From the NCBI GenBank assembly GCA_009783145.1, contig WRHR01000003.1, positions 23,019 to 87,018 of the forward strand: a DNA stretch of 64,000 bases, in the 5' to 3' direction. This DNA comes from Alphaproteobacteria bacterium (GTDB lineage: Bacteria; Pseudomonadota; Alphaproteobacteria; Rs-D84). The position numbers and the translations under genes were made by a program. Shown here piece after piece: positions 22,889 to 64,000 of this stretch. The number at the start of each line of letters is the position of its first letter. Positions within the stretch are counted from its first letter, which is position 1. The notes under the pieces are model-generated. The model made no database searches, had not been told where the DNA came from, and saw nothing but the letters and a program-made list of their open reading frames with translations.

Positions 22889-24265
22889 TTATTTTCCCAA
22901 ACATAATTGCCCGAATACGGAATCGGCAACCTCCGATGCGCCGATGACGCCCAGAATCTGGCCTATATTGTCCGCCGCGCGGCGAATATGCTCGGAAAAC
23001 AAATCCATATTGGTCTTTTGTCCTTCAGCTTTTGCCAGTTCATCCGCAGCGGCTTGCAGATGCATGCGCGCGCGCTCATTAAGGGCGACATCGGACTGGG
23101 CGCCATCCAGACGGCTATGCACTTCCGCGCGAATTCGTTCCAACAGCTCTGGTATTCCTTCGCCGGTCAATGCCGAGACGCGAAACGCGAAACGCGAAAC
23201 GCGATTATTATTATCCAGCAAATCACATTTGTTTATGACGATTATTTCATTATCACGCGTTTCGCGTTTCGCGTTTCGCGTCTCGACCCTTATCACCAAA
23301 TCCGCCCTTTCAATTTCCTGGTTGGTTTTTTCAATCCCGATCTTTTCTATCGTATCTTGCGTCTCGCGCAAGCCGGCGGTATCCGCCAATCGCACAAGGT
23401 ACCCGTCTATATCGATTTCGGCCGACACCACGTCGCGCGTAGTGCCTGGGATTTCCGAAACTATCGCGCGCGATTCTCCAACCAAGCGATTGAACAGCGA
23501 CGATTTTCCGGCATTAACCGGCCCTATGATGGCTATATTGAAACCGCTGCGGATAGACCTGGCCGCGGCGCTGCGGGATAATGCTGCTGAAATTTCTTTA
23601 CCCAGGGCACGAGTGCGCGAGAGTATTGTCTCGCCGATATTCGCAGGAAGTTCTTCGGCCGGATAGTCCAGCATTGCGGCGGAATAGGCTGTGATTTCAA
23701 CCATTTGCAAGCGCCAGTTCTCATATACGGCACTGTCCGCGCCGGCGGCAGCGCGCAAAGCGCTTCGCCGCTGGGCATCAGTGCGCGAATCCAAAAGGGC
23801 CGCCAAGCCGTCGGCCTCTATCAAATCCATTTTGCCGTTATCGAAGGCGCGGCGGGCGAACTCGCCGGGATTCGCCAAGCGCGCCCCATACGCGCGCAGG
23901 GTCGCGAATAATTTTTCAATTACGGCCGCGGCGCCATGAACATGAAACTCAATAATATCTTCGCCGGTGAAACTGTGTGGGGCCTGGAAATAAATGGCAA
24001 TCGCGCGGTCAATCACATCGCTGCTTTTATCAACCAGGTCGGCGAGATACGCATGGCGGGGCAGCGGTTCCCCTCCTGTGGAGGGGTGGCTCGCGAATGA
24101 AATGAGCGAGACGGGGTGGTTCGTGTAATGTTCGCAGTTGGCTAAACCACCCCGGCCCTTCGGGCCACCCCTCCACAGGAGGGGAACCGCTGCCCCGCTG
24201 ACGCGCACGACCGCAACGCCCGCTTTTCCATGTCCCGAAGATAATGCGAAAATCGTATCGGTCAT
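22889..24265 (-). CDS. mnmE: tRNA modification GTPase MnmE, carrying two in-frame palindromic-element insertions
   Basis: FTGEDIIEFHVHG N-domain, G-domain GPVNAGKSSL, NKCDL, C-terminal CLGK. An extra 47-aa segment (VPLLWRGG...GGEPLP) is encoded by element B, and the RVETRNAKRETR/RVSRFAFRVS segments by element I. Confidence 0.88.
   Translation of the reverse strand: MTDTIFALSSGHGKAGVAVVRVSGAAVPLLWRGGPKGRGGLANCEHYTNHPVSLISFASHPSTGGEPLPRHAYLADLVDKSSDVIDRAIAIYFQAPHSFTGEDIIEFHVHGAAAVIEKLFATLRAYGARLANPGEFARRAFDNGKMDLIEADGLAALLDSRTDAQRRSALRAAAGADSAVYENWRLQMVEITAYSAAMLDYPAEELPANIGETILSRTRALGKEISAALSRSAAARSIRSGFNIAIIGPVNAGKSSLFNRLVGESRAIVSEIPGTTRDVVSAEIDIDGYLVRLADTAGLRETQDTIEKIGIEKTNQEIERADLVIRVETRNAKRETRDNEIIVINKCDLLDNNNRVSRFAFRVSALTGEGIPELLERIRAEVHSRLDGAQSDVALNERARMHLQAAADELAKAEGQKTNMDLFSEHIRRAADNIGQILGVIGASEVADSVFGQLCLGK
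23175..23275. repeat. Family I (gcgaaac)n palindrome, copy I1, inside mnmE G-domain coding region
   Basis: gagacgcgaaacgcgaaacgcgaaacgcg ... cgcgtttcgcgtttcgcgtttcgcgtctc. Confidence 0.8.
24057..24197. repeat. Family B element, copy B2, 141 bp in-frame inside mnmE
   Basis: ggggcagcggttcccctcctgtggaggggtgg ... ccacccctccacaggaggggaaccgctgcccc; 141 bp equals 47 codons. Confidence 0.85.
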
Positions 24266-44107: not shown

Positions 44108-46684
<2,577 letters not shown>

Positions 46685-47285: not shown

Positions 47286-47413
47286 CGGATTTTTTAGAGT
47301 AGAAGAGTAACGCCGGCTTCGCCGGCAGAGTAAGAGAGTAGTAAAGTATTAGATTACTCTTTAACTCTCTTACTCTTCTACTTTGCAAACGCGAAGCGTT
47401 TGCGTTACTCTGG
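47286..47413. repeat. Family A element, copy A6
   Basis: agagtagaagagtaacgccggcttcgccggcagagtaagagagtagtaaagtattagattactctttaactctcttactcttctact plus gcaaacgcgaagcgtttgc. Confidence 0.8.
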
Positions 47414-47423
47414 CTTACCGCGC

Positions 47424-48167
47424 CTAGGCGCGGTATAACCCTCCGTTTACATGAATCGTCTGCCCGGTAATATATGACGCTACATCGGAAGCCAGGAACA
47501 GGGCCGCATTTGCGATATCGGACGGCTCGCCAAAACGGCCGGCCGGAATCTGCGCCAAGTACTGCGCTTTCAATTCTTCCGGCAAAACATCAGTCATGGG
47601 GGTTTTGATAAAGCCCGGCGCGATGCAGTTCGCAGTGATTCCGCGCGATGCGACCTCGGCCGCAATGGATTTCGTCATCGCGACGATGCCGCCTTTGCTT
47701 GCCGCATAGTTCGCCTGACCCGGGCCTCCGATTGTGCCGATGATGGACGACATATTTATGATGCGCCCATACCTTGCCTTCATCATGGGAATAATTGCAG
47801 CGCGGCATAATTGAAAAGTAGCACGCAAATTGGTGTTAATCACATCGTCGAACTGCTCGTCCGTCATGCGCATCAACAGGGTATCTTTCGTAATGCCGGC
47901 ATTATTGACCAGAATGTCTATTTTCCCGGCCTTCTCGATGGTTTCCGCGACTAAACGGTCGGCTTCACCCAATTTGCTCAAATCTGCAACAATTGGAATT
48001 ACATTTGCCATTTTACATTTGCCATTTGCCATCTCTTCCAGTTTCGCGGCGTCTCTGCCCGTAATAATAACTGTTGCGCCCTGGCCCGCGAAACTGGAAG
48101 CTATCGCTTCGCCGATTCCGCCTGTGGCGCCGGTGATTAATGCAACTTTGTCTTTGAGTAACAACAT
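47424..48167 (-). CDS. fabG: 3-oxoacyl-[acyl-carrier-protein] reductase FabG
   Basis: KVALITGATGGIG, NNAG, YAASKGG SDR motifs; an extra MANGKCKMAN segment is encoded by a (caaatgg)n repeat. Confidence 0.88.
   Translation of the reverse strand: MLLLKDKVALITGATGGIGEAIASSFAGQGATVIITGRDAAKLEEMANGKCKMANVIPIVADLSKLGEADRLVAETIEKAGKIDILVNNAGITKDTLLMRMTDEQFDDVINTNLRATFQLCRAAIIPMMKARYGRIINMSSIIGTIGGPGQANYAASKGGIVAMTKSIAAEVASRGITANCIAPGFIKTPMTDVLPEELKAQYLAQIPAGRFGEPSDIANAALFLASDVASYITGQTIHVNGGLYRA
48003..48034. repeat. Family C tract in-frame in fabG
   Basis: catttgccattttacatttgccatttgccat encodes MANGKCKMAN. Confidence 0.75.
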
Positions 48168-48168
48168 T

Positions 48169-48444
48169 TCATCTTCCTTCGTTTTCTTTAAAAACAAGCC
48201 TTTCATATTGTCCCGCTTTTCTTCTCGCTTCCTGCCGGGCGCTATGCCTGGCGCCCTCTTCTCCGAACTTCAAAACCTTTTTACTTAATTTCTTGGGAGG
48301 CTTTAGTTTGCTAAACAACTTTTCCCCAAGCAAATCTTTCGTGCTGATCGACAACCGCATTCTACCAAGCTCTTTCTTTGCCGTCTCGATTATTTTGCGC
48401 TTTTTATATTCGTCCTCATGATCCTTTTCTCGGCCGTTTTTCAT
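48169..48444 (-). CDS. Small basic hypothetical protein between fabD and fabG
   Basis: ORF in the 278-bp fabD-fabG spacer; Lys/Arg-rich; uncertain. Confidence 0.2.
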   Translation of the reverse strand: MKNGREKDHEDEYKKRKIIETAKKELGRMRLSISTKDLLGEKLFSKLKPPKKLSKKVLKFGEEGARHSARQEARRKAGQYERLVFKENEGR

Positions 48445-48445
48445 A

Positions 48446-49372
48446 CTATATCTCCAACTTTCTAGCGCCCAGCTCCGGCACGATTCGCGGAACCAGTCCT
48501 GTAAGAACACTACCCGGACCGACCTCTATTGTTTCCGTAATGCCCAGCGCGGGAAGCGCCAAAACAGTCTCGCGCCAGCGCACGCCATGCGTAATTTGAT
48601 AAACAAGAGCTTCTTTTATTTCCGCCGGGTCCGACATAGGCGCGGCAGTCTTGTTTGAAATCAAGGGCACCGCCGGCGCGCGCATTTCAATCTTATCCAA
48701 TGCTTCGCGCATCTCTATTGCAACCGGTTCCATCAATCTTGAATGAGGCGGCACGGAAAGCGGCAGCAGCATGGCGCGCTTCGCGCCCATATCGCGCGTA
48801 ATCTCCATCGCGCGCAGTATAGTCCCCTCGCCCCCGGAAATCACAACCTGGCCCGGAGCGTTGTCGTTCGCCACATCCGCGACATTATAATGGTCATTGC
48901 GGCCGGCCTCTTCTTCAATTTGCTGCTCGGCCGTCTTGCAAGCTGTTGCCACCTGCTCTATTCCCAAGCCCATTATGACAGCCATGGCGCCTTTGCCCGC
49001 CGGGACCGCGCGCTGCATTGCGGCGCCGCGCAGGCGCAAAAGTTTCGCCGTGTCCGTAACGCTTAAAGCCCCCGCCGCGCACAGCGCGGTATATTCGCCC
49101 AAGGAATGCCCCGCGACGAACTTCACATCATCCATCGTTAATTTCGCCGCTTTCAGCATCGCGATTGAAACGGCGAAAATCGCCGGCTGAACGTTCGCGG
49201 TCAGCGTTAATTCTTCCATAGGGCCGTTGAAAACAATCTCGGACAATTTCTGTCCCAGCGCGGAATCCACTTCATCAAAAACATCGCGCGCTATCGGATA
49301 ATTGCCGTACAGGTCCTTGCCCATGCCGACGGCTTGCGACCCTTGGCCCGGGAAAATCAAAATCGATGACAT
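48446..49372 (-). CDS. fabD: Malonyl CoA-ACP transacylase FabD
   Basis: FPGQGSQ, GHSLGEYTAL active-site Ser, 308 aa. Confidence 0.9.
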   Translation of the reverse strand: MSSILIFPGQGSQAVGMGKDLYGNYPIARDVFDEVDSALGQKLSEIVFNGPMEELTLTANVQPAIFAVSIAMLKAAKLTMDDVKFVAGHSLGEYTALCAAGALSVTDTAKLLRLRGAAMQRAVPAGKGAMAVIMGLGIEQVATACKTAEQQIEEEAGRNDHYNVADVANDNAPGQVVISGGEGTILRAMEITRDMGAKRAMLLPLSVPPHSRLMEPVAIEMREALDKIEMRAPAVPLISNKTAAPMSDPAEIKEALVYQITHGVRWRETVLALPALGITETIEVGPGSVLTGLVPRIVPELGARKLEI

Positions 49373-49405
49373 TTGTCGCCTCTTTTGTGGGATTTATAGC
49401 AAATA

Positions 49406-49468
49406 AATTAGCGATTAGCAATTAGCAATTATCAGGGAGTTTAATTGCTAATCGCTAATTGATAATTG
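49406..49468. repeat. Family G (aattagc)n palindrome with GGGAGT core, copy G1
   Basis: aattagcgattagcaattagcaattatcaGGGAGTttaattgctaatcgctaattgataattgctaatt. Confidence 0.8.
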
Positions 49469-49499
49469 CTAATTAAAAAACCGGCAAAGCGCGGATTTT

Positions 49500-50537
49500 T
49501 TATGAAAGCGCTGCCGTTATCTGGTCCTGCATCTCGAACGTGCCGAAGACGACCCATGCGATGACTGCGGAAACCAGCAGTATTCCGACCGAGTTCAAGA
49601 TATTTGACATGCTTTCCATCTTGCGGACGGATGCGTCCAGATAGTCGTTCGCTATCTTTTCAAGGTTCGCGTCAAAGCCGTTCATATCGGCGTAAATGGC
49701 CAGGTCGCCGATGATTTCGTCATTCGGGAAACGCGTTCCTGTGTTCTCCAAGGCCCGCCCCAGATTGTCGCCGTTGGCGATAAATCCTATCGCGCGCTCC
49801 AGAATATCCTTCAGGTATTTGCCGGAATTATCGGCCAGCATTTTCATAGACATAGGCAAACTGCCGCCCGCGGCAACCATAGCCGCCAAAGACATCATCC
49901 AGCCGACGGATACGGAAATCTTGTACATAGACCAAGGCGGAATCGCATCGAACATGACGCGCAAGCGCCCCGACCAATTCGTGAACGAAGCCCAAATCAG
50001 AGCAATCAGGGCAATAAACGCGGCGATTATAATCAGAAAGTAGTTATTGGAAAAATCGGATACGGCGATGAGCGTTGCCGCCGCGCCGCGCCAAGCTATA
50101 TCGCCTCCGGCCGCTTCCCTTAACGGGGGCACCAGATATAATCCGACCGCCATGATTATGACAAAGGTCAACGCCAGCAAAACCGACGGATACAAAATCG
50201 CGTCCATCATGGCTTTCTTAATTTTGCTGATTCCTTCGCCGACGCGAACCACGTTATCCAAAGCGATGGAAAGCTTTGAAATATCGCCGACGGCCAACAT
50301 AAGAGTTTCGTTGCCGGGCGACCATCCGCGCGTGGCGTCGGGAAAAGGCAGACCGCGCTCCAGATTCTCGCGCCAGGCATTGATGACCAGCGCGAAAGGC
50401 TCGTTCGGCTTGTCCCCGTTCTTGCTTTCGGTCGCATAAACCCTGTCCAGCGCATCCATCAAAGTGAAGTTATTACGCAGCATTGATGCCAGCTTGCGAT
50501 ATAAATTCATCCGCTTGTCCGTATCGAAGCCGAACAT
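49500..50537 (-). CDS. GspF/PilC/TadB-family platform protein (short form)
   Basis: LYRKLASMLRNNFTLMDALDRV matches the T2SSF domain signature; three TM helices; about 345 aa from the internal Met, with the TTG-start extension lying in repeat G2. Confidence 0.55.
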   Translation of the reverse strand: MFGFDTDKRMNLYRKLASMLRNNFTLMDALDRVYATESKNGDKPNEPFALVINAWRENLERGLPFPDATRGWSPGNETLMLAVGDISKLSIALDNVVRVGEGISKIKKAMMDAILYPSVLLALTFVIIMAVGLYLVPPLREAAGGDIAWRGAAATLIAVSDFSNNYFLIIIAAFIALIALIWASFTNWSGRLRVMFDAIPPWSMYKISVSVGWMMSLAAMVAAGGSLPMSMKMLADNSGKYLKDILERAIGFIANGDNLGRALENTGTRFPNDEIIGDLAIYADMNGFDANLEKIANDYLDASVRKMESMSNILNSVGILLVSAVIAWVVFGTFEMQDQITAALS

Positions 50538-50576
50538 GAATTTCGCGTATAAGATATCAAGTTTCGTTGCCAAAAC

Positions 50577-50737
50577 AATTAGCAATTAGCAATTAGCAAT
50601 TAGCAATTAGCAATTTTTTCATTACTTATGCTTATTACCAACCAACTAATTTTTCCTTTATTTGTTTTAAAGCAACCAACTTTCTCACAACCGCAATCTA
50701 AATAATTGCTAATTGCTAATTGCTAATTGCTAATTAA
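50577..50737. repeat. Family G (aattagc)5 ... (gctaatt)5 palindrome with about 90-bp spacer, copy G2
   Basis: Left arm 50577-50614 overlaps the GspF-like 5' end; right arm 50705-50737 overlaps the GspE-like stop; adjacent actcccggc (GGGAGT on the other strand). Confidence 0.8.
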
Positions 50738-52377
50738 TACACTCCCGGCTGGTCCAGTAGTCCCACCCAGCGTTCCAGCTCCTCAACGCCGATGATGCCT
50801 TTCAGCATCAGCTCTATCGCCGCCTCTTTCAACGTGCGCCCGTCCAGTTCTTCCAGCCAATATTTTACCGCATCCGCGGAATTCCCCGCAAGCGCCAGTT
50901 CTAGGAATCTATTGTCTGTGATGATAATCTCGCCCGCTTTTATGCGCCCTATGGTGCCCTTTTCCGCGCAGTACTTGCATCCGTCGCCGCGGAAGTAAGT
51001 CTGGCGCAGGCCTGTTTCTCCGAACGCTTCCAGCACGCGCTTGTACGCGGGATGATCGGGAAAATTAACCAGCATTTTTCTGCACTGCGGGCAAAGCTTG
51101 CGGAACAAGCGCATCGACACCAGCCCGCGCATCATGGTTTCGTCTTTCAGCTTGAACCCTTCCACGCCCATATCCAAAAGGCGGGTAAGCGCCGCCATTG
51201 CGGAATTGGCATGCAAGGTGGTCCAAACGCTGTGCCCCGACAATGCCCCCTTTACCGTCAATTGAGCCGCGCTTAAGGTGCGGATTTCGCCGACCATCAT
51301 CACATCCGGATCGCTGCGCAGGGCGGATTGCAAAGCTTCGGTGAATTTCTCTTCCCGCTGCTCTTCGTTGTTCGCATTAACGACTGGAATCTGATGGCTG
51401 CCGAAAATGCGCCTTTCCGCCGGGTCTTCGATCGTAATCAGATTGATTTCATAATCGCGCTCTTTCAGCATAAGCGACATATTCTGGAAAAGAGTCGTGG
51501 ACTTTCCGCTGCTGGTCGGACCCGCGACCACGATAAGGCCGGTCGGGAAAGACCGCATGCGCATCAAAAGATCGCGCTCGTACTCGCCGAATTCCTGCTC
51601 GGTCTTTATGGTCTCGGCCGGGTTGTCGTACAGCAGGCGCATCACCACATAGCGCGATCCGAACGCGATCGGATTGAACTGCATTCTAATGCCCATAATG
51701 CCGGCCGGAAGATACAGGTCCCGCGTGCCGCGCAAAGGAGTGCGCCCGTCTTTCTGCGCGCTCTGATACTCGTTCTGCGCATAGTTGGAATTGGACTGGT
51801 CGGCGGATGCGAATGCTGCGCGGACGAAAGACTCGCCCCATTGAGAGTTGTATTCCAACACGGTCTGCATGCTGCCGTCCATGCGGAAATAAACGGTGGT
51901 CTGGTCGGCGACCTCTATATGAATATCGGATACTTTCAGGCTTGCGGCGCGCGCGATTATATCAACGAAGTCCTTTTGCATCTGGTTATCGTAATCCAAG
52001 GGCGCGCGTGATGCGATGCCCGCGAACTTCGCGTCGTTAAATTTGTATATGCCGGAAATAAGGCCCAGATCGCTGTAAAAAGGCTCTTTGGCCGTGCGCT
52101 TTTCTTTTTTAAGCAGCTCCAGGAACGAAATCACCCGCCCGTCATAGCGGTGAGTGCGAGAAATGACGATTTCGCCGCCGGAAAAGTACGCGAGCAAGTT
52201 CTGCGTATCTCTTGCCACTTCCAGCGCGCCGCCATTCGCGGTCAGCAAGGCGTTTGTGTTTGAGAACAAATACTCGATGATTTCTTTTTGCGTCGACGCG
52301 CCGATATTATTCGGCACGCTTGGGGCCGCGCTGCGCGCGGGCGAAGGAGTATTTTCAAGATTCTTTCGTGCTGACAT
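50734..52377 (-). CDS. GspE/PilB-family secretion/assembly ATPase
   Basis: GPTSSGKSTTL Walker A, MVGEIR, TLHANSA, C-terminal CPQC..x24..CKYC zinc motif. Confidence 0.8.
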   Translation of the reverse strand: MSARKNLENTPSPARSAAPSVPNNIGASTQKEIIEYLFSNTNALLTANGGALEVARDTQNLLAYFSGGEIVISRTHRYDGRVISFLELLKKEKRTAKEPFYSDLGLISGIYKFNDAKFAGIASRAPLDYDNQMQKDFVDIIARAASLKVSDIHIEVADQTTVYFRMDGSMQTVLEYNSQWGESFVRAAFASADQSNSNYAQNEYQSAQKDGRTPLRGTRDLYLPAGIMGIRMQFNPIAFGSRYVVMRLLYDNPAETIKTEQEFGEYERDLLMRMRSFPTGLIVVAGPTSSGKSTTLFQNMSLMLKERDYEINLITIEDPAERRIFGSHQIPVVNANNEEQREEKFTEALQSALRSDPDVMMVGEIRTLSAAQLTVKGALSGHSVWTTLHANSAMAALTRLLDMGVEGFKLKDETMMRGLVSMRLFRKLCPQCRKMLVNFPDHPAYKRVLEAFGETGLRQTYFRGDGCKYCAEKGTIGRIKAGEIIITDNRFLELALAGNSADAVKYWLEELDGRTLKEAAIELMLKGIIGVEELERWVGLLDQPGVY

Positions 52378-52452
52378 TTACGATTTACGATTTGCGATTT
52401 ACGAATTACGATTTATGGGGAGTCAAATCGTAATTCGTAAATCGTAAATTTT
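52378..52452. repeat. Family J element, copy J2
   Basis: tttacgatttacgatttgcgatttacgaattacgatttatgGGGAGTcaaatcgtaattcgtaaatcgtaaatttt; lies between the GspE-like start and the PilP-like stop. Confidence 0.8.
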
Positions 52453-52455
52453 AAA

Positions 52456-53064
52456 TTATTCACCGGCATAAACGCCTAAAACAGTAATCTCGCCGCCTTT
52501 GGATAGAACCACGCCTTCGTCGATCGATACGGATTCAACGCGGTAGTCGTCCAGATTCTTGCCGACGGAAACTTTTCTTCTCTGCCCGTTGGTGACATCC
52601 TCGACGGTCGCGAACAGCTGGCGTCCTGCGCCTACGATTTCAATCAGGCGATATCTTTCGTTTATCGGGGACGGGGCAGGTTTGCTGGTCGCGGGAGCGC
52701 GTTCTGGCTGGCGGCTTTCCATGGACATCTTCTGCTGTTCCAACTTTTCCCTTTCCAGCTCCAGCCGCTGGCGTTCCAGCTCTATCGCGCCGGTCTGAGC
52801 CTGCGAAGCCCCGCTCATAGCGTCCATTTCGTTGCGGATGCGCACTTGCTCGGCCGCCAGGCGATCCATATCCAGTTGCAACTGAGCCCTTTCCTTTTCC
52901 AACTGCATCAGGATTTTTTCCTGCTCCAGGTCGGCGATCATCTGAAACAGCGACCCTTCCGGATTGTAATCCTCGACATCTTCCGCGGCGCGGACGCCAA
53001 TCGGCGAAATCGCCGCCAGTACTGCCAATAGCATTAGTTTATTTTGCATAGATTCTAACCTCAT
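52456..53064 (-). CDS. PilP/GspC-like periplasmic protein (signal peptide, coiled coil, C-terminal beta domain)
   Basis: Signal MLLAVLAAISPIGVRA, long Glu/Gln/Leu-rich coiled coil, C-terminal YRLIEIVGAGRQLFATVED...VSVGKNLDDYRVESVSIDEGVVL resembling PilP/GspC HR domains. Confidence 0.45.
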   Translation of the reverse strand: MRLESMQNKLMLLAVLAAISPIGVRAAEDVEDYNPEGSLFQMIADLEQEKILMQLEKERAQLQLDMDRLAAEQVRIRNEMDAMSGASQAQTGAIELERQRLELEREKLEQQKMSMESRQPERAPATSKPAPSPINERYRLIEIVGAGRQLFATVEDVTNGQRRKVSVGKNLDDYRVESVSIDEGVVLSKGGEITVLGVYAGE

Positions 53065-54280
53065 AGTTCCAAACCCTGGTGCGGGCGTCCCATTTTACCG
53101 CCTTTAAATAAAGCGGCGAAATCCCTTCGAAAATCTCTATGAATTCAAGGGGTTTTAATTTCGAGCTCGCATTCACCGTAACAACGCTTATGTCCTGCGT
53201 GGCGATTCCCTGGCGAACGGTTTCGATAACAGGCCTTACATTTGCACTCGCGCCTATTGTCTGAAACAGAGTATTCACCGAGTACACTATATTTTCGACC
53301 AAGAATTGGGGCGTTTGCGGCTGGCTGGGCAATTTGGGCAGCGTCACGCTGATAACGGCATCCGAGTCCGTGTTTTCAGTGATGAAGACATTGTTCATCA
53401 TCAAGCGCGCGGATTCGTGCATTCCGGCAACCGTGCCGTATGTGCGGCGCAGGTTGGCGCGCGCGGTCAGTCCGTCGCACTCGGCCCCGGTCTGAACCCA
53501 TCCCGGAATCTGCTGCATGACATAGGCGATCCCGCGCCAGCATTGGTCCGCGCGAAGCTCTGCGTCGGGCAAGTCGTCATAAGGCATCGCGATGCGGACG
53601 GGCTCAGGCGCAGCAACACGAGCATTTTTAGCTTCCAGTTTGCGTTTATATTCTTCCAGAACCTCTGGGCTAATATTTGCTTTCTGGGGCTTTGGGGCAA
53701 TCAATTTCGCGATCGGCTCATGAAAGAAATACCAAACGCCGAACGCAAAGGCCGCGAAAACAAGAAGCGAGATAATGTTTCCTGAAACGCTGCCTATGGG
53801 CGTCAGCGAGACTTTGGAGTTCCCCGCGACAATATCTTTCAGCGGTTTTTCCACCGCGCGCGGAATGGTCCAGTACCCAGGAGCGACCATGATCCCCCAA
53901 TCGGGCAATTCCGATAAATTCGCATACTCGCGTTTGGCGTCGTTTTCATTAGAGAACAACTGGTCGAAGATTATGATGTTATTGCGGACCGCGACAATCC
54001 AGAAACCTTGTGGCACAAAGAATGCCGCCAGAAAACTGTTGTATTCGGAAAAGGAATTAATAACCTCCACTGCGGCGATTTTCATCCCTCTGCGATGACC
54101 CAAAGCGCGCCCGCCTACGCCGACCATGGACTTGAACTCGGCATAAAACTTTACGGTTCCGGGAATTTGCTTGGACAGGGTTGCGGCGAAATTACGCGGA
54201 TTTTGACCGGCGGCCAAGGGCTGCCAAAACAGCCCGACCGCGTATTTTTTACGCTCAATAGTGATTACTTGCAGTGGCAA
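53039..54280 (-). CDS. Bitopic inner-membrane assembly protein (GspL/PilM-PilN-PilO-like topology)
   Basis: About 165-aa cytoplasmic domain, single TM (NIISLLVFAAFAFGVWYFF), about 220-aa periplasmic domain; overlaps the PilP-like gene by 26 nt. Confidence 0.4.
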   Translation of the reverse strand: MPLQVITIERKKYAVGLFWQPLAAGQNPRNFAATLSKQIPGTVKFYAEFKSMVGVGGRALGHRRGMKIAAVEVINSFSEYNSFLAAFFVPQGFWIVAVRNNIIIFDQLFSNENDAKREYANLSELPDWGIMVAPGYWTIPRAVEKPLKDIVAGNSKVSLTPIGSVSGNIISLLVFAAFAFGVWYFFHEPIAKLIAPKPQKANISPEVLEEYKRKLEAKNARVAAPEPVRIAMPYDDLPDAELRADQCWRGIAYVMQQIPGWVQTGAECDGLTARANLRRTYGTVAGMHESARLMMNNVFITENTDSDAVISVTLPKLPSQPQTPQFLVENIVYSVNTLFQTIGASANVRPVIETVRQGIATQDISVVTVNASSKLKPLEFIEIFEGISPLYLKAVKWDARTRVWNYEVRIYAK

Positions 54281-54374
54281 AATTCTCTCCGGTTTTCCCC
54301 TTCTATGGGATTATAACAAATAAACTATGAAATAAGGAAGGGAAAAGTGAAGGGGCGTTCCCGCCCCTATAACA

Positions 54375-54698
54375 CTATAGCCCCTGGCAATCATAAACAA
54401 GCGTAGTCATAACAAACGAGCGTTCCGGCGCGAACATTCTCCATTCGTTCTGGCGCGTATCCTTGGACTTTATCCAAAACGCGTTGCCGTTTCCGCGCGC
54501 TGCAATTTGATTTTTCACAAAGCGCACCGCGTCATCCTCGGAATACATGGAAACATCGGATTCCAGTTGGTACAAGAATGTGCAGGCCGTTGGTTCCGCT
54601 TTCAATTGCACCAATTCATCGGCGCCGGATTTAAGCTTGACAGTATTGCTGCACGCAGCCAGCGCAACCGCCGTTATTGCCAATAAAACTTTTCTCAT
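54375..54698 (-). CDS. Small lipoprotein (possible pilotin-like)
   Basis: MRKVLLAITAVALAACS lipobox; immediately upstream of the membrane assembly gene in the same direction. Confidence 0.35.
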   Translation of the reverse strand: MRKVLLAITAVALAACSNTVKLKSGADELVQLKAEPTACTFLYQLESDVSMYSEDDAVRFVKNQIAARGNGNAFWIKSKDTRQNEWRMFAPERSFVMTTLVYDCQGL

Positions 54699-55075
54699 TT
54701 CGCATCCTCCTTTGTTTGCTCTTGAAATATTTTGTCGCCCCACCAGTGCGGAATCAACTCTTTCAATCTTATGGTTTTTCTTGTTTCAAAATCCATCATG
54801 ATTTCTGTGTCTTTATTCTTATCGGACAGTTGCATCATCCATTCCCGGCATGCGCCGCAAGGAGCCCAGTTGTTCAGTTCTTCTTTTGGCGGGAATGGCC
54901 CGACGCTCGCTAAAATCCGTTTTACAACCACTTCGCCGGTTTCAGACGCCATTTTCAATATCGCAACTCGTTCTGCGCACATATTGCCGACACCGCTGCA
55001 TGAATCGAAACATATTCCTGTGAAAATTTTACCGCTTTCGCTTTCTATCGCGCTTGCCACGCCGCCGCCAGACAC
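54695..55075 (-). CDS. cdd: Cytidine deaminase
   Basis: CAERVAI and PCGACREWM zinc-binding motifs; the N-terminus appears short, so the true start may be a non-ATG upstream. Confidence 0.7.
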   Translation of the reverse strand: MSGGGVASAIESESGKIFTGICFDSCSGVGNMCAERVAILKMASETGEVVVKRILASVGPFPPKEELNNWAPCGACREWMMQLSDKNKDTEIMMDFETRKTIRLKELIPHWWGDKIFQEQTKEDAK

Positions 55076-55152
55076 AAATGGAGAATACTGTTTAGAACCT
55101 TTGACTTTTTACGCCTCGTCTTTCAGACGTTCCCAAATATCTTCTCTCATAT

Positions 55153-56097
55153 TTACTCTCCTATGATTTCATAATTTTCCGGGTCTGCAAAGAGCTTTCG
55201 CAACACCAAGTTATTCAGCCCATGGCTGCCTTTCCAGGATTCCAATTCTCCGACTATCAAGCCGCCGGCCGTAAACAGGTCGCCGGCCGCGTCTATCAAT
55301 TTATGCCGCACGAATTCGTCCGGGCAATGCAATTCGTTCAATGTTCCGTCGCCGGTTTCGTTAAGCGCCAGGATATTGTTTTCGTTCGCGCCCAGTCCCA
55401 TTCCGCGCTTTTTCAAATACTCCCATTCCCAGATGCGGCCGAAAGACCGGCAATTCGCAAATTCTTTTAAAAATTTACGGCGCGAAGCCTCGGCGCCCTT
55501 GGGCGACGGGTCAAATAAAAATTCAGCGCTTTGCGTTCCGATTATTTTATCCGGATATACCAAAGTCGCTTTTATCTTCAACCCTTTTGAATAAGGCGAC
55601 AATTTTACGAACCCGTCCTCTCGCCGCCCGGTTTTCAAATTATAAAACCATAATCCGATGCGTTTTAATAAAGGCATCTGTCCTATGATTTCGCGCCGAT
55701 ACGCGATTACCGGCCGTTTTACTATTATTTTTTTACCAGCCCAAGGTTTGCAGATTCCGGCCTCTTCAAATATTTCTATGAATTGCTTCGCGCTGCCGTC
55801 CAGTATGGGGAACTCCGGCCCGTCAATTTCCACAATTGCGGAATCTATGCCGCAGACGAACAGCGCCGCCATAAAGTGTTCAATAGTTCGAACCTGATTG
55901 GGCGCCTTACCAATCGTTGTGTCCCATGTGCCGGTATTTACAACGTTATCCCAAGTCGCGGGAATGGGCTGGCTACCGGGCAAATCAGTGCGATGAAAAA
56001 ATATCCCCGGCTTGTCGGTCAGACGAACGCGCACGTTCGCGCTTTTGCCAGACTGCAAACCAACGCCGGAAAATTTAATCTCTTTAATTTTTTTCAT
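55153..56097 (-). CDS. lpxC: UDP-3-O-acyl-N-acetylglucosamine deacetylase LpxC
   Basis: TIEHFMAALFVCGIDSAIVEIDGPEFPILDGSA, HCPDEFVRHKLIDAAGDL, GSHGLNN. Confidence 0.9.
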   Translation of the reverse strand: MKKIKEIKFSGVGLQSGKSANVRVRLTDKPGIFFHRTDLPGSQPIPATWDNVVNTGTWDTTIGKAPNQVRTIEHFMAALFVCGIDSAIVEIDGPEFPILDGSAKQFIEIFEEAGICKPWAGKKIIVKRPVIAYRREIIGQMPLLKRIGLWFYNLKTGRREDGFVKLSPYSKGLKIKATLVYPDKIIGTQSAEFLFDPSPKGAEASRRKFLKEFANCRSFGRIWEWEYLKKRGMGLGANENNILALNETGDGTLNELHCPDEFVRHKLIDAAGDLFTAGGLIVGELESWKGSHGLNNLVLRKLFADPENYEIIGE

Positions 56098-56194
56098 TTT
56101 TTCTCTTTTTTCGCTCGCCGCTTCGCATCTGCGCGTCTGCGCGTATCCTCGTAATTGCTCAATCTTCGCTACGCTCGATTTCGCATACTCGGAT

Positions 56195-57133
56195 TCATTT
56201 AATTTTTCCTTCTAGCCATTTCCAAAATGCCGGCTCTATTGTTGTTTCCAGTTTCGCAAATTTGATTTTCTTTTGCGCGATAGGCGGCAAACGAATCCAA
56301 TCTTTTTCAGTGGTTATCAATTCTGCTTTTTCTTTTACCGCTAATGCGAACAATTTTTTCAAATCGGCATCAGAATATTGATAATGATCTGGGAAAGAAA
56401 TCGTTTTTACCGGCCTTTTCGGCAATTTTTCAAAAAACTTCTTCGGATATCCGATACCGGCAAAAGCTATGAACGGCAAATGGCAAATAGAAGATGGCAA
56501 ATGTGTCTCGCTTTTTGCCAAAAACACCGGCTTTTTGTACCTTTTTGCAGCAATTTCCACTTCTGATTCCCCATTTGCCATTATTATCACCGCATCCGCT
56601 CTCTTTATTGCGCTCAGCGGTTCCCGCAAAGGCCCGGCAGGCAGAATGAACCCATTTCCAATGCCGATTTTCCCGTCAAAAACAGGGATGGAAATATCTT
56701 TTTTTACGGTCGGATTTTGAAATCCGTCGTCCATAATGATGTGTGAAAAGCCGGCCTTTTCGACCATTTTTATGCTTTTCAACCGGTCCTTTCCAACAAA
56801 GACTGGCAAACCGGACGCGGCCAACATCTTCGCCTCATCGCCGACATCCGCTGCCGTATCATTTGACCCGACTTTTCCGGCCTTTTTGCCTTTATACCCC
56901 TGCATAACTATTGCAGAACTGGGGAACAAGCGGGCAACTTCGCGGACTATCGGGGTTTTCCCGACGCCGCCGGCAAGAATATTGCCTATGCAAATTACCG
57001 GCCTTTTTGCACTTTTTTGCCAAAAAGACCGGTAAAAAAAGACTGCGCGGCTGGTCAAAAGATATAGCCAAGACACCGGCAGCAAAAGCCACGCGATAAT
57101 ATTTCTTTCAAGAAACCAATTCGGTGTTTTCAT
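56195..57133 (-). CDS. lpxK: Tetraacyldisaccharide 4'-kinase LpxK
   Basis: GNILAGGVGKTP P-loop, SRGYKG-like, IMDDGFQN; a THLPSSICHLPF segment is encoded by a (caaatgg)n repeat. Confidence 0.85.
   Translation of the reverse strand: MKTPNWFLERNIIAWLLLPVSWLYLLTSRAVFFYRSFWQKSAKRPVICIGNILAGGVGKTPIVREVARLFPSSAIVMQGYKGKKAGKVGSNDTAADVGDEAKMLAASGLPVFVGKDRLKSIKMVEKAGFSHIIMDDGFQNPTVKKDISIPVFDGKIGIGNGFILPAGPLREPLSAIKRADAVIIMANGESEVEIAAKRYKKPVFLAKSETHLPSSICHLPFIAFAGIGYPKKFFEKLPKRPVKTISFPDHYQYSDADLKKLFALAVKEKAELITTEKDWIRLPPIAQKKIKFAKLETTIEPAFWKWLEGKIK
56473..56504. repeat. Family C tract in-frame in lpxK
   Basis: ggcaaatggcaaatagaagatggcaaatg; a further catttgccat lies at 56571-56580. Confidence 0.7.
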
Positions 57134-57202
57134 TTTAAACTGAGAGCTGAAAACTGAAAACTGAGAACCAGATTTCAGTTCTCAGTTTTCAGTTTTCAGT
57201 TT
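57134..57202. repeat. Family H element, copy H2
   Basis: aactgagagctgaaaactgaaaactgagaaccagatttcagttctcagttttcagttttcagtt; supplies the DUF374 gene stop codon and abuts the lpxK start. Confidence 0.8.
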
Positions 57203-57912
57203 TTTATTTCTCCTGGCTCTATCTTGGGCAACTTAAATTCAGCATCGGTATCTTGTAGCTGTTTTATCATAAATTTTTCAAGATCTTCACGTGCGGAATT
57301 AAAATTGTCTTTGGTTATGAACACCGGCTGACCCACATTGCAGATTATCTTTGAAAACGGCTTGGCGACCAAGTATCTGTCCCAACGCTTTTGAAACCAA
57401 GGACGCGAACTTGAATAACATACCGGGATGATCGGCGCGCCGGTCATGCGCGCGAAGTAAAGCGCGCCGTCGTTCAGGCGCATCAAAGGCCCCTTTGGGC
57501 CGTCGGGAGAGAGCGCAAGGATATAGCCTTCGTTAAGGCGCCGCACGCCTTGGCGCAGCGCGGATACGGCCCCGTCGCGACCGGTGGAGCCAAATATGGC
57601 GCGCAAACCGAACAAGCGCTGTAATTTCGCCATCAGGCGTCCATCCTTGTGGCGGGATGAAAGCGCGAATCCGCGAAATCCGTACCTGCGGACAATGGGG
57701 GAAAGCATCATGGATCGCCCATGCCAAAAGACGAATATGGCGGGCTTTTTGCGGTGTTCCAGGAAAACTTGTTCGCCATTGATTTTTTTTCTGGAAGTAA
57801 AATAAACGAGGTAAATCCCCAAAAACATAACGGAGGCCAAGACCCATTGCACTGGGGCGGCGCCAAACGCTTTTTTCCAAAATCTTTTCCAAACGTCTTT
57901 AAATTTCTTCAT
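57196..57912 (-). CDS. DUF374-family (lysophospholipid acyltransferase-like) lipid A-associated protein
   Basis: FVFWHGR, LSSRHKDGRL, ALSPDGPKGP motifs; start at MKKFKDVWK; upstream of lpxK. Confidence 0.6.
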   Translation of the reverse strand: MKKFKDVWKRFWKKAFGAAPVQWVLASVMFLGIYLVYFTSRKKINGEQVFLEHRKKPAIFVFWHGRSMMLSPIVRRYGFRGFALSSRHKDGRLMAKLQRLFGLRAIFGSTGRDGAVSALRQGVRRLNEGYILALSPDGPKGPLMRLNDGALYFARMTGAPIIPVCYSSSRPWFQKRWDRYLVAKPFSKIICNVGQPVFITKDNFNSAREDLEKFMIKQLQDTDAEFKLPKIEPGEIKN

Positions 57913-58273
57913 AACAAACTCTGCTTTAAGGGAAATATAGCAATAAGCCCAAAGGAATTCAACAAAAACGAAATCCGCCCGCTCGCCGATTCGTTGCTGT
58001 GGATTTTCATAGTAATTTAGTGCGTGTAATGCCCGGTTTCCTGGGACTTTTTTAGTGTTTAGCGAATAACAAAAAATACCTTGACCGAAAAATATTTCTT
58101 CTGTATAAAACAAGATAAAGGGGACCGATTTATAAAAAAATCAATCCCCTGAAACTGGGCGGTGTAATGGTGCCCAAGTGTGAACACTTCCACCTTACAC
58201 TGCCCAAGAGTACTTTGTCAAATGCAAATTTGATGAAGGTGTTTAACACATCATATAACCAAAAGGATAAAAA

Positions 58274-58504
58274 ATGGTGAGATGTAAAAGAACGTGGGGA
58301 TTAGAAATCCACCACAAACGCATTGATGGCGGAAATGACTTGGGTAATGCCCAAGTTTTATGCCAAAAATGCCACGAAAACACAAGCTCTTATGGCAGCC
58401 CAGACCATAAAACTCCGCCTGCGTTTAGCGAAGAAACAAAAAAAGCTGCGCTGAAACGTGCGGAGCATCGGTGCGAATGCACAAAGGGAGCTTGTTGTTT
58501 ATAA
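58274..58504 (+). CDS. HNH endonuclease
   Basis: LEIHHKRIDGGNDLGNAQVLCQKCH, a short stand-alone HNH motif; begins the AT-rich island; terminator follows. Confidence 0.7.
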   Translation: MVRCKRTWGLEIHHKRIDGGNDLGNAQVLCQKCHENTSSYGSPDHKTPPAFSEETKKAALKRAEHRCECTKGACCL

Positions 58505-58505
58505 C

Positions 58506-58536
58506 AAATAACCGCCCAAATGGGCGGTTTTGTTTT
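58506..58536 (+). terminator. Rho-independent terminator after HNH gene
   Basis: aaataaccgcccaaatgggcggttttgtttt. Confidence 0.7.
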
Positions 58537-59062
58537 GAACTTGGTTGGGGCAGTTAGACAAGTTTCTAACTGACCAGTCTGATGAACTGATAGATTTCAT
58601 AAATCAGTATAATCACTTTATGGAACTGCTATCCATAGAAGAACCAGAACTATTTGCTCTATACGGCGGAAACATTGGTGTTGAAAAATAATTCATTACG
58701 ATTTAATCCGATATTCCGAATTCCATTAAATCCACATATTTGACCCACAGACCTTCAGGTTATGAGTCCGATTATCAACAGTTCAGCAACCGTTCTTAAA
58801 TCACTTATTGCTCTGCAAGTGTTAGTTTTCAACGGTCATTATCAACCATTAGTGGAATTGTTCTATAAACCATTCTGATAACCATTCTATCAAACCCTAT
58901 GTAAAAACAGATTGTAGTTTGTTGAACCATTCTTAAAAGTGTTTCAAAAGAGTTAATTAACTGGACTTTGTTATATGGTTCCGCCAGGGTTAAGGGGTTG
59001 ATGAAACGATTTATGAAAAAGGAGATTGCTATGAACTTTTATTATGCTGAAATGGTTCGCAT

Positions 59063-60037
59063 CTATTGACCTTCGGAACTAATCACCGTTTTCCATACAT
59101 CTCTTTCTTTCGGAGTCAGTAAAACACAGTCATAATGCAACCCTTTCGGAGCATAGTCATTTACGATATAAAGGTTATTGCTATTTCTCTTATGTGCAGT
59201 TGCAAGTTTGCTGGTTATAACATTAGATTTTGTCGTAAATTCAAACGAACTACCGTCCTCAAAATAGACTTTTTCATAATAAGGCAAATCCGAACAATTA
59301 GTTTTAAGATTTTTCTTTTCATTATAATTAAAGTGCTGGTATCCAAATTTATATACATTTAGTTTCCCCATCTTGATTTTTTTAGAGTCTTTATACCTAT
59401 AAGTTTTTTCATTACTATATGAACCAAATATATTTACTTCACAAGAATTTTTGGTGAATGAGACCAAATACTCAAACGGAAGTTTCTTTGCTATAACTGC
59501 TTCAAGTGCTTCACGAGACCAACCGCCCTTGTTTTTAACTTCCTGTATAAATCTATCAGTATCCCCCACCGCACAGAAAAATAGTTTCTGCTTGCCTTCT
59601 TCTTTATCAAAAAATGCCATTGAACTTTTCGCAATCTTCTCCATTTCCTTCTTTTTGCACAATTCTTCTATGGCATCCCTTTTCTTCGGAGAGTATGAAG
59701 CAAACTTCCGTTTGAAATTATCAACATCTATAAGCAGGTCTCGTGGGTCTGTTTCTACAAACCCAACATCCACATAATTAAAGTTTCTTTGGGAAGAACT
59801 AATATCCATTTTTCGTTGGAAGTCCCTTTTGGGTTCAAAACCTTGTGCGACACCGCAGGGTATATCCACACCCCAGTCTTTCATAGATTTTTTGGAAATC
59901 TTATCAACCTCGTCTGTAAATAGATTGATTCCTACCGGGATAAGAACCACCGCAGATACACCGCCAATAATTGCATATTTGACGACATTTAATAATCCCG
60001 ACCACAAGGTCTTTATAGAACCCAGCATTTGTTTCAT
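59063..60037 (-). CDS. Membrane-anchored hypothetical protein
   Basis: N-terminal TM (YAIIGGVSAVVLIPVGINLF); AT-rich; no family recognised. Confidence 0.4.
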   Translation of the reverse strand: MKQMLGSIKTLWSGLLNVVKYAIIGGVSAVVLIPVGINLFTDEVDKISKKSMKDWGVDIPCGVAQGFEPKRDFQRKMDISSSQRNFNYVDVGFVETDPRDLLIDVDNFKRKFASYSPKKRDAIEELCKKKEMEKIAKSSMAFFDKEEGKQKLFFCAVGDTDRFIQEVKNKGGWSREALEAVIAKKLPFEYLVSFTKNSCEVNIFGSYSNEKTYRYKDSKKIKMGKLNVYKFGYQHFNYNEKKNLKTNCSDLPYYEKVYFEDGSSFEFTTKSNVITSKLATAHKRNSNNLYIVNDYAPKGLHYDCVLLTPKERDVWKTVISSEGQ

Positions 60038-60061
60038 TTTGGTTTCCTTTGAATTCCGTTT

Positions 60062-60958
60062 TTAGAACATATTTTTCAGTCCATTAAAAACTTCAAGTTC
60101 TTGCTTATCGCTGACAAGTTTCCAGACTGTTGGTATATTTCTATGCCCATTGTCTTTAACCTGTTCTCGACTCATTCTGCAGGACTTATTCAATATGTCA
60201 TTTAATTGGTCAATAGACCACGGGTCTGTATATGCAGATTCCATTTCTACGATACATTCGCCCGTTTTTTGATTATAAATAGTCTGAACAAATGACCTTT
60301 TCTTGCCACGACCAAATGGACAAGTTGTATCCACTCTTCCATCGGCAGTTTTACCATTATATTCACAATCTCTCAAATTGGGTTGAACCATATTTCCAAA
60401 AGTGCATTGTGAATCTTCTATGTATCTGGTAGTAGTGGACTTTTTAGTTTTAATTAGCGAATAAACAGTTTTGTTGATTGTGCAAGAGTATTGTCCTGTT
60501 TCGTTAAAACTCACCTCCAAATATCGTGTTTCCGATTTGTCTTCAAATTTGTAAATTAAATTGAGGATTTCGGGGACTTTTTCGCAAACAATGTCTTTTC
60601 CTGAAGTTTTGTTTGTTGGCACCTTTTCTTCAAAATAAGTAGGTCTTGTGTGCTTTATTATCTGATAACAAACCTTTGCGGAGTTTTGCTCTTGTTTTGC
60701 ATTACCTTCAATTTGCGAGTTGTCGTTTTTTGCTTCTTCTATCTTCTTATGGCACTCCGAATCCGAAAGATATTTTGTTTTCTTCTTTTTCTTTATTTTG
60801 CAATATTTCTCTTTCAAATCTGGGTCAATTTGCAACTTTTCACTTATAGTCGTATCGGTTGTAGGTGTTGATGGGGCAAGTGACTTCTGGGATTTCTTCG
60901 GACTACCACCACAAGCGACAAGTGCCAGCAGTGCTATCAGGATTGTAAGTTTTTTCAT
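60062..60958 (-). CDS. Cys-rich lipoprotein, hypothetical
   Basis: MKKLTILIALLALVACGG lipobox, about 14 Cys, Lys-rich low-complexity region. Confidence 0.45.
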   Translation of the reverse strand: MKKLTILIALLALVACGGSPKKSQKSLAPSTPTTDTTISEKLQIDPDLKEKYCKIKKKKKTKYLSDSECHKKIEEAKNDNSQIEGNAKQEQNSAKVCYQIIKHTRPTYFEEKVPTNKTSGKDIVCEKVPEILNLIYKFEDKSETRYLEVSFNETGQYSCTINKTVYSLIKTKKSTTTRYIEDSQCTFGNMVQPNLRDCEYNGKTADGRVDTTCPFGRGKKRSFVQTIYNQKTGECIVEMESAYTDPWSIDQLNDILNKSCRMSREQVKDNGHRNIPTVWKLVSDKQELEVFNGLKNMF

Positions 60959-63979: not shown

Positions 63980-64000
63980 TTCTTCGTGAATGATTTTCCG

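Follow-up and report, generated by a model that had tools for sequence, protein, structure and literature searches.

How do essential bacterial genes come to carry tandem copies of a 7-nt unit inside their reading frames, and what allows those copies to persist? The question is raised by a 64,000-nt stretch (contig WRHR01000003.1, positions 23,019 to 87,018; hereafter the window) of an alphaproteobacterial metagenome-assembled genome (MAG), the relatives of which are labelled Rickettsiales or Alphaproteobacteria. Arrays of the unit GGCAAAT lie within fabG, lpxK, and tsaE and recur in an intergenic palindrome. A sequence-only reading had taken the tracts for in-frame peptide insertions, maintained by selection after insertion or by copy-number change in steps of three units. 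The best explanation, which we put slightly above even, is that they are in-gene members of a dispersed family of heptamer-array hairpins, filtered by selection and kept by homogenising copying.

One Heptamer in Three Intact Genes and a Palindrome

The tract positions first assigned hold to within 1-2 nt (Table 1), and one heptamer is indeed common to fabG, lpxK, tsaE, and the palindrome. The 10-mer ATGGCAAATG occurs 14 times in the window against 0.36 expected, a count reached in 0/100 shuffles. The fabG tract matches the palindrome's left arm (31684-31714) at 31/31 nt, or over 34 nt counting the TAA that follows; because the identity includes the variant unit GTAAAAT, it argues for copying rather than coincidence. 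Chance similarity is ruled out by this identity together with the 10-mer count.

NCBIfam confirmed the identities of FabG, LpxK, and TsaE, all of which are full-length with intact catalytic motifs (the fabG open reading frame [ORF] of 260 aa reaches 48206, beyond the 247-aa annotated form). On sequence evidence the tracts thus appear to be in-frame parts of intact genes, as had been proposed; intact ORFs, full-length alignment, and conserved motifs rule out pseudogenes. An assembler artefact is unlikely because contigs from JGI and ENA assemblies are 100% identical to the window over 1.6-9 kb (the reads are probably from one sample). With two assemblers in agreement and orthologous arrays present in other samples as well, this candidate was rejected. 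It had also been remarked that the repeat is read in different frames in different genes, which is true but trivial, since any array of at least three heptamers runs through all three phases. What does distinguish the genes is the strand: The unit is read in sense in fabG and tsaE and in antisense in the lpxK downstream arm.

A Dispersed Family of Period-7 Arrays and Inverted Pairs

Tandem Repeats Finder and our own scan of the 64 kb identified 17-19 period-7 arrays of 3.4-5.7 units, compared with 0-2 arrays for each of the other periods (5, 6, and 8-12) and 0.07 in composition-preserving shuffles. At least 10 unit families coexist in the window: GGCAAAT, CGAAACG, ACAGAGC, TTTGCTC, ACGAATA, AAAGAAT, ATTTACG, AATTAGC, AACTGAG/AAAACTG, and the octamer AGAGTAAG. 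Nearly all arrays are paired, with ~4 units per arm. In the ~16 inverted pairs the arms are separated by either 0-8 nt or 38-125 nt, are near-perfectly complementary, and mirror each other's variant units. Folded as RNA, the pairs reach -22 to -66 kcal/mol (z -6 to -10). Those between genes lie directly against start and stop codons. The initial reading had caught the GGCAAAT tracts but missed the breadth of the family (at least 10 heptamer families), the inverted pair as its usual architecture, and the nature of a short 'catttgccat' string in lpxK, which is a decayed second arm.

Pairs That Bracket Native Codons

The native codons of IIVINKCDLL (the G4 NKxD motif) lie between the arms of the mnmE pair. 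One of these arms terminates in native RVSA codons, which include the G5 'VSA'; homologues are longer, not shorter, at both arms. Perfect 30-bp inverted arrays around NKxD mean that the process can overwrite resident sequence as well as insert. In rluD, the arms bracket native S4-domain codons and encode NRAQSTEHRL and NSVLCALCSVHC. The 'catttgccat' of lpxK (CATTTGCCAT, 56572-56581) is a remnant of a second inverted arm, and the lpxK architecture is therefore the same as that of mnmE and rluD; the lpxK arm pair folds at z -3.9 and the tsaE array at z -0.4. That the arms bracket resident codons in all three genes argues against a conventional inserted element with an interior of its own.

A search for inverted partners of the solo fabG and tsaE arrays returned, for tsaE, only an 11-nt match to native ISHF codons (the array adjoins native ATTTCCCATTT) and, for fabG, only an unrelated 15-bp stem. 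This stem folds at -39.2 kcal/mol (z -3.7). The residues encoded by its arms are unlike those of relatives, with SSFAG in place of KTFRD and AAKLEE in place of ESKLKE.

Elsewhere in mnmE, the protein N terminus (about aa 27-70) carries an extra segment of ~40 aa beginning PLLWRGGPKGRGGLANCEHYTNHPVSL. A relative (P0362, 67-71% identical) has an insert of ~200 aa at the same site, which by eye looks like a DUF559/Vsr-like endonuclease domain.

A Stop-Codon Filter on In-Gene Units

The unit families fall into two classes by coding capacity. All four families found within genes (GGCAAAT, CGAAACG, ACAGAGC, and TTTGCTC) are free of stop codons on both strands, whereas none of the six intergenic-only families is (0/6; each has a stop on at least one strand). 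Fisher's exact test, worked by hand from these counts, gives p ~0.005; ~50% of random heptamers are stop-free on both strands. With many unit families side by side, the filter cleanly separates those tolerated in genes from the others, and it backs the earlier suggestion of selection after insertion. Tracts persist in essential genes, we infer, because GGCAAAT is stop-free in any frame and sits in tolerant surface loops. The filter on in-gene survival is itself an observation; this account of its cause is the probable one.

Net Insertion Versus Overwriting

Residues are added relative to close orthologues, as the description of the tracts as peptide insertions implied; the insertions are not simple, however, because part of each array replaces resident codons. 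FabG gains +6 aa (18 nt) relative to its nearest relatives (241 aa) and 0 relative to one of the same length (P0130, 247 aa); LpxK gains +2-3 aa (6-9 nt), with THLPSSICHLPF aligned to the consensus TIIPxGIxK--F; and TsaE gains +9 aa (27 nt) relative to minimal orthologues. The arrays themselves measure 29-31 nt. Since such arrays give net changes of 18, 6-9, and 27 nt, they are not simple n x 7 insertions, and in alignments of the three genes the remainder of each array overwrites resident codons in variable loops. Comparison with orthologues, which the sequence-only reading had proposed as its check, therefore bears out a net gain in FabG and LpxK, but neither protein has a gap at the tract when aligned to Protein Data Bank (PDB) homologues. 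The same-length fabG loop of P0130 carries a proto-repeat, TTGGCAACCGGCAAG; the DNA of this loop (TTG GCA ACC GGC AAG ...) resembles two units. In mnmE and rluD, the arms lie in linkers and show no net insertion relative to homologues.

The tracts fall at loops and element ends in AlphaFold2 models. The FabG tract is predicted to span the end of helix 40-48 and loop 49-55; the LpxK downstream arm, the end of a strand, loop 212-220, and the start of the next strand; and the LpxK upstream arm, loop 186-190. TsaE has an insertion hot spot between YEG and ISHFDLYR, where relatives have 0, 2-9, or 20-58 extra residues and the window has 9. The inserts of 20-58 aa in this loop occur in P0246, P0247, P0249, P0263, and L134:10001-10579. 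The DNA of the P0249 insert is G/C-rich and quasi-palindromic, CCCCCCCTCTTGGGGGGGG ... CCCCCCC, which marks the loop as a place at which repeat DNA has landed more than once.

Orthologous Arrays Keep Their Length and Change Their Unit

Relatives separate the gain of arrays from their subsequent change. At three loci syntenic with the window (L125, L127, and L129) across the block DUF374-lpxK-lpxC-...-type II secretion system (T2SS) E/F-fabD-fabG, genes overlap or lie at most 54 nt apart and have no arrays, compared with 62-196 nt for the hairpin-bearing spacers of the window. These compact, array-free junctions indicate that the intergenic hairpins are gains in the window lineage. Heptamer hairpins of the same kind also occur in L134, which is more distantly related and comes from another sample.

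The in-gene arrays have a longer history. The closest LpxK relative (P0005) shares 64-70% aa identity (alignment-dependent), 71% nt identity, and 52.5% third-position identity. In the lpxK of this relative (L123), both arms lie at the same codons as in the window, with GGCAGAA upstream and ATCTGCC downstream: The upstream arm reads GGCAGAA AGCAGAA GGCGGAA GGCAGAA (L123:742-770), and the downstream arm is (CATCTGC)4 in four almost perfect copies (L123:827-860). At position 4 of the unit, the window has T,C,T,T and L123 has C,C,C,C. The closest TsaE relative (L133, 86% identity) has an insert of the same length, 27 nt, which in heptamer register reads GGCAGAA GCGCGAC GTCAGAA GGCAGAA against four copies of GGCAAAT in the window.

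The idea of expansion and contraction in three-unit steps is not supported by this comparison, in which orthologous arrays are equal in length and differ in a unit that has changed in parallel across copies. Length kept with unit changed in parallel, at both lpxK and tsaE, indicates sequence homogenisation rather than copy-number change. Taken with the fabG-palindrome identity, the parallel change points to gene-conversion-like copying among arrays, and to homogenising copying over slippage. On their alignment with relatives, the lpxK pair and the tsaE array are inherited; they have most likely been re-typed to the current unit of the genome by gene-conversion-like homogenisation. Clusters at 90% identity held only the window's own sequences, and a metagenome scan with the LpxK query found nothing closer than 68% identity.

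Feature Inventory of the Window

Coordinates of the arrays, pairs, and host genes are collected in Table 1.

Table 1. Heptamer arrays, inverted pairs, and their host genes in the window (a dot marks features given without strand)
Feature	Positions	Strand	Description
fabG GGCAAAT array	48002-48032	-	ATGGCAAATGGCAAATGTAAAATGGCAAATG; units GGCAAAT GGCAAAT GTAAAAT GGCAAAT; encodes MANGKCKMAN; solo arm
fabG coding sequence	47424-48167	-	247-aa form annotated by NCBI; NCBIfam TIGR01830, 1.2e-96
fabG 15-bp stem	48030-48049 / 48086-48104	-	CTTCCAGTTTCGCGG / CCGCGAAACTGGAAG; adjoins array; brackets native GATVIITGR codons
lpxK downstream arm	56475-56503	+	GGCAAAT GGCAAAT AGAAGAT GGCAAAT; antisense read THLPSSICHLPF, (T)HLPSSICHLPF
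lpxK upstream arm	56551-56581	-	decayed array GGCAAAT GGGGAAT CAGAAGT GGAAATT; encodes MANGESEVEI; inverted relative to downstream arm
lpxK coding sequence	56195-57133	-	NCBIfam TIGR00682, 6.3e-52
tsaE array	33740-33768	-	GGCAAAT x4, all perfect; encodes GKWQMANGKC
tsaE coding sequence	33532-33972	-	NCBIfam TIGR00150; PDB alignments
Intergenic GGCAAAT palindrome	31684-31783	.	arms 31684-31714 and 31753-31783; spacer 38 nt; RNA fold -43.2 kcal/mol, z -6.1
mnmE (CGAAACG)n inverted pair	23174-23204 + 23256-23285	-	ORF 22889..24265; 30/30 complementary; RNA fold -65.9 kcal/mol, z -9.2
rluD (ACAGAGC)n inverted pair	5471-5600	-	ORF 4745..5719; 31 nt, 1 mismatch; RNA fold -64.7 kcal/mol, z -10
(AAAACTG)n hairpin	57138-57203	.	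between DUF374 gene and lpxK; z -9.1; overlapping stop/start codons here in relative L129
(ATTTACG)n hairpin	52376-52456	.	intergenic; abuts start codon of T2SS-E-like gene and stop codon of upstream gene
(AATTAGC)n inverted pair	50574-50735	.	intergenic; spacer 87 nt
(AATTAGC)n hairpin	49397-49474	.	intergenic
(CGCGAAA)n inverted pair	46501-46683	.	brackets 123-nt divergent intergenic region; variant units mirrored between arms
(ATTTACG)n hairpin	29108-29165	.	intergenic; abuts start codon of dciA-like gene
(AACTGAG/AAAACTG)n hairpin	36008-36065	.	intergenic; directly upstream of uvrB start
(AAAGAAT)n inverted pair	6144-6269	.	brackets intergenic spacer and start codon
(TTTGCTC)4.6 solo array	2892-2923	+	encodes signal-peptide core FALCSLLFALC of periplasmic-binding-protein-like ORF

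Heptamers also encode signal-peptide cores (lipoprotein-type, hydrophobic) in two related genomes; L134:14253-14273 reads TTTGTGC TTTATGC TTTATGC. The octamer family, AGAGTAAG / CTTACTCT, has five copies (8159-8231, 9593-9652, 33440-33511, 47327-47382, and 33970-33999). These are nested composite palindromes flanked by the GC-rich mini-hairpins GCCGGCTTCGCCGGC and GCAAACGCnnnGCGTTTGC and a terminal GTTACTCT, with the classical look of repetitive extragenic palindromes (REPs) or transposable elements of the miniature inverted-repeat type (MITEs). In three families, the loops of short-loop hairpins have a common motif, GRGAG on the + strand (29135-29139, 49435-49441, 52418-52424, 36035-36045, and 57165-57172). 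Its transcribed strand, CUCYC, resembles an anti-Shine-Dalgarno sequence.

Two other regions stand apart. Between lpxC and pilus-like genes, a small ORF on the minus strand (54695-55075, 87-126 aa) has a weak match to a cytidine/dCMP-deaminase zinc-binding region (E 3.7e-6), and no gene occupies this place in the syntenic relatives L125 and L129. The segment at ~58000-64000, with a GC content of 0.38-0.41 compared with ~0.50 elsewhere, is free of heptamer arrays and has the appearance of an island acquired recently; it encodes a Beta_protein-family ORF and an ImmA/IrrE (Peptidase_M78) ORF. At gathering thresholds, Rfam found only two tRNAs in the window (RF00005; 41358-41429 and 41553-41623, both + strand).

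Origin, Spread, and Persistence of the Arrays

A typical member of the family is an array of ~4 units (28-35 bp) that makes up one arm of a hairpin-forming inverted pair. The family appears to pervade this MAG and some of its relatives. Arrays probably originated by slippage with a 7-nt step during replication-type copying, and were then probably propagated by short-patch copying, either hairpin-templated or ectopic, that started from microhomology with local sequence; copying of this type seems likelier than a cut-and-paste transposase. Most copies fill gene spacers, abutting start and stop codons, and a few land in ORFs. Survival within a gene would require a unit that is stop-free on both strands, a length-variable loop or linker, and a net change that is a multiple of three. 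The peptides MANGKCKMAN, HLPSSICHLPF, and KWQMANGKC would then be by-products without a required protein function, and any function would lie at the nucleic-acid level, as for REP-like hairpins in polycistronic mRNAs.

Several junctions show sequence common to arrays and resident DNA. The unit TGAAAAC matches the native start of lpxK, ATGAAAAC, which is also present in the array-free relative (57138-57203 vs. L129:1915-1935), and the ATTTACG arrays at 29108 and 52376 both end in CGTAAATG, the ATG of which is the start codon at both loci. Such microhomology, seen at lpxK, the ATTTACG loci, tsaE, and the RVSA codons of mnmE, is consistent with seeding from local sequence or with template switching guided by microhomology. 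The window also encodes RecA, at 18183-19253.

Several considerations weigh against this account. The mechanism is read from array anatomy alone; it leaves the 7-nt step unexplained, and likewise the way in which two arms end up around 50-125 nt of sequence that is resident and even catalytic. The GRGAG loop common to three families and the conserved composite octamer element fit whole-element spread better than local seeding, and hairpin stability and mirrored variants are as compatible with selection on structure as they are with templated copying. Because the short contigs L123 and L133 may derive from different genomes, family-wide re-typing rests on two loci. The comparison for length variants covers the window's own clusters and contigs that are probably from the same sample.

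Among the alternatives, an unlikely but substantial one is that the arrays are mobile elements resembling MITEs, REP-derived REPINs, or Rickettsia palindromic elements (RPEs), inserted into spacers and, in frame, into genes; the arms would be terminal inverted repeats for a trans-acting transposase (e.g., the REP-associated RAYT or an insertion-sequence enzyme) and the solo arms decayed halves. It would account for multicopy families within 64 kb, the 34-nt identity between the fabG tract and the palindrome arm, the loop motif shared by three families, the five nested composite copies of the octamer, and the clean, compact 'empty' junctions of relatives, and in-frame RPE insertion in Rickettsia genes provides a precedent (PMC10969869). 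The sequence between the arms in mnmE, rluD, and lpxK is nonetheless resident coding DNA (NKxD, the S4 domain, and KxYxKPxF) rather than an element interior, and the arrays mostly overwrite instead of adding. No target-site duplication was seen at the two junctions compared with 'empty' sites, transposase, RAYT, and reverse transcriptase were all missing from a Pfam scan of ~60 ORFs of the window, and more than 10 unrelated units sharing only a 7-nt period are hard to square with sequence-specific end recognition. We assign a somewhat lower probability to the view that the arrays are selected nucleic-acid structures or binding sites (mRNA stabilisers, processing sites, translational regulators at start codons, or platforms for single-stranded RNA- or DNA-binding proteins of the cold-shock-domain [CSD] or S1 type), with coding copies retained for this cis role. 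Very stable folds (z -6 to -10) sit exactly at cistron boundaries, abutting start or stop codons; variant units in opposite arms look compensatory; the lpxK and tsaE arrays have stayed repeat-like over ~30% nt divergence; and TAACTGA repeats that precede start codons have been suggested to act in regulation (PMC4679880). Yet the arrays of fabG and tsaE have no partner arm and show no significant structure (z -0.4 for tsaE), relatives manage without the elements at the same junctions, the units are too diverse for one sequence-specific binder, and perfect 30-bp stems in essential ORFs probably cost the cell more than they bring.

Three further readings carry less weight. It is improbable, in our judgment, that a dedicated templated mechanism (a trans-acting template or enzyme, or directed conversion) writes a 7-nt unit ~4 times over, often to either side of a segment. 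Such a writer would explain the parallel switch from GGCAGA(A/T) to GGCAAAT in lpxK and tsaE, the constant 7-nt step whatever the sequence, and the bracketing of catalytic-motif DNA without length change; the recurrence of GGCAAAT and AAAACTG/TAACTGA in many phyla would suggest that its activity is horizontally transferable. Very little probability attaches to contingency-type microsatellites, the view of the sequence-only reading, under which slippage generates variants and essential genes tolerate only three-unit (21-nt) changes. The arrays are tandem with a short unit, three heptamers make seven codons, and the L133 tsaE has a 21-nt periodic duplication, GAAGGCAGAAG...GAAGGCAGAAG; but orthologous arrays are identical in length across 14-36% aa divergence and differ in unit instead, none of the net changes (18, 6-9, and 27 nt) is divisible by 21, and loss of three units would abolish arrays of only ~4. 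The hosts (fabG, lpxK, tsaE, mnmE, and rluD) are housekeeping genes rather than surface, virulence, or restriction genes, and no length variants appeared in the 90% clusters, which held only the window's own sequences. That the encoded segments are adaptive peptides selected for a protein-level function is hardly credible: They lie in surface loops at positions kept between the window and its closest relatives, but one DNA unit yields unrelated peptides across genes and strands, the DNA periodicity and unit identity are conserved where the peptide is not (RSATSEGRS vs. KWQMANGKC), and the units also occur in noncoding spacers.

Returning to the dispersed hairpin family, we note that slippage, transposition, and templated-conversion models become directly testable in one lineage. 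For annotators and protein modellers there is also a caution: Oddities with a 7-aa period in housekeeping enzymes (GKWQMAN, ICHLPFA) can be read-through repeat DNA.

Occurrence in Other Phyla

In a scan of one genome per species, three-unit GGCAAAT arrays occurred at no fewer than 120 loci in many phyla (for example L060:3-2264, L016, L070, L022, and L095, within L003-L122). The loci listed are also rich in other period-7 arrays, with 121 nontarget arrays compared with 26 of period 6 and 31 of period 8. Of 125 GGCAAAT arrays among the matches listed, 79 fall within stretches that run for at least 150 codons without a stop. In a Phycisphaerales MAG, the array encodes MANGKWQMAN inside a UbiD core domain, and PMT_2-type glycosyltransferases make up 4/10 of the GGCAAAT-bearing ORFs examined. 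The units AAAACTG, AATTACG, AAATCGC, and AGATGGC, related to other families of the window, recur at these cross-phylum loci.

Comparison with Known Repeat Systems

Similarities to mobile repeats are partial. REP units are imperfect palindromes of conserved sequence, mobilised by RAYT. Like REPs and bacterial interspersed mosaic elements (BIMEs) or the REPIN-RAYT system, the window has short intergenic inverted-pair hairpins between operon genes in many copies; unlike them, its arms are tandem arrays of diverse families, and the scanned ORFs include no RAYT. With respect to MITEs, the arms resemble terminal inverted repeats, no target-site duplication was seen at the two junctions compared, and conservation of the interior is confined to the octamer family and the 5-nt loop motif. 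In Ehrlichia ruminantium (Rickettsiales), Collins and colleagues reportedly described in 2005 spacers expanded by short tandem repeats, with actively length-variable direct repeats, and heptamer-encoded peptides are said to have been noted there; in the window, by contrast, inverted-pair architecture dominates. RPEs are in-frame palindromic repeats in housekeeping genes that add surface peptides while function is kept (PMC10969869). The likeness extends to selfish-looking palindromic repeats in a Rickettsiales-like alphaproteobacterial lineage, in frame in housekeeping ORFs (loops of FabG, TsaE, and LpxK). RPEs, however, are ~100-150 bp long with family-conserved sequence, are inserted whole, and encode a conserved peptide, whereas the arms in the window are 28-35-nt heptamer arrays with a resident interior, small or nil net insertion, and some solo members.

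The closest counterparts are heptamer repeats. According to the account of Mrazek et al. 2007 given in PMC4692102, heptamer repeats are over-represented in bacteria, and slippage is the hypothesis offered. In Xanthomonas, GGGAATC forms ~186 arrays per genome, mostly of 4 units, with 70-75 convergent inverted pairs and 7-11% of arrays intragenic (Rehm et al. 2015, PMC4692102); these and the GGGGAYT arrays of Nostoc are ~90% intergenic, near gene ends, with polymerase slippage the proposed origin (PMC4692102). The window shares with these arrays, and with the short tandemly repeated repetitive (STRR) sequences of cyanobacteria, a 7-nt unit, a mode of ~4 units, a period-7 excess, and inverted pairs capable of forming stem-loops. 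It likewise has the defining features of heptamer simple sequence repeats (SSRs): tandem arrays of 2-6 units, an excess of period 7 (over the 64 kb covered), mostly intergenic placement near gene ends, and inverted pairs. It differs from the single G-rich, G-quadruplex (G4)-prone motif of Xanthomonas and Nostoc in having at least 10 unrelated, mostly A/T-rich units; its arrays are nearly all paired, pairs in essential enzymes bracket catalytic motifs, and orthologues keep length and change unit.

Direct heptamer repeats of TAACTGA occur upstream of start codons in Beggiatoaceae, cyanobacteria, and Bacteroidetes, and in 25 ORFs of one Beggiatoaceae genome (MacGregor 2015, PMC4679880). They comprise 2-6 units within a few nt of starts, have a patchy, cross-phylum distribution, and in some cases lie within ORFs that encode peptides of 7-aa period such as LSVISYQ (PMC4679880). 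The AAACTGA family of the window is one base from TAACTGA and also lies directly upstream of starts (lpxK and uvrB). TAACTGA arrays are, in contrast, almost all direct (with one inverted case) and have a single dominant unit, and their in-ORF copies lie at protein termini or in hypothetical proteins, unlike the conserved catalytic domains of the window. The repeat finding in the window is real and is a variant of the known heptamer-repeat phenomenon rather than a new system; its novelty is that many units, pairs placed around catalytic motifs of essential genes, and turnover of the unit at orthologous sites come together.

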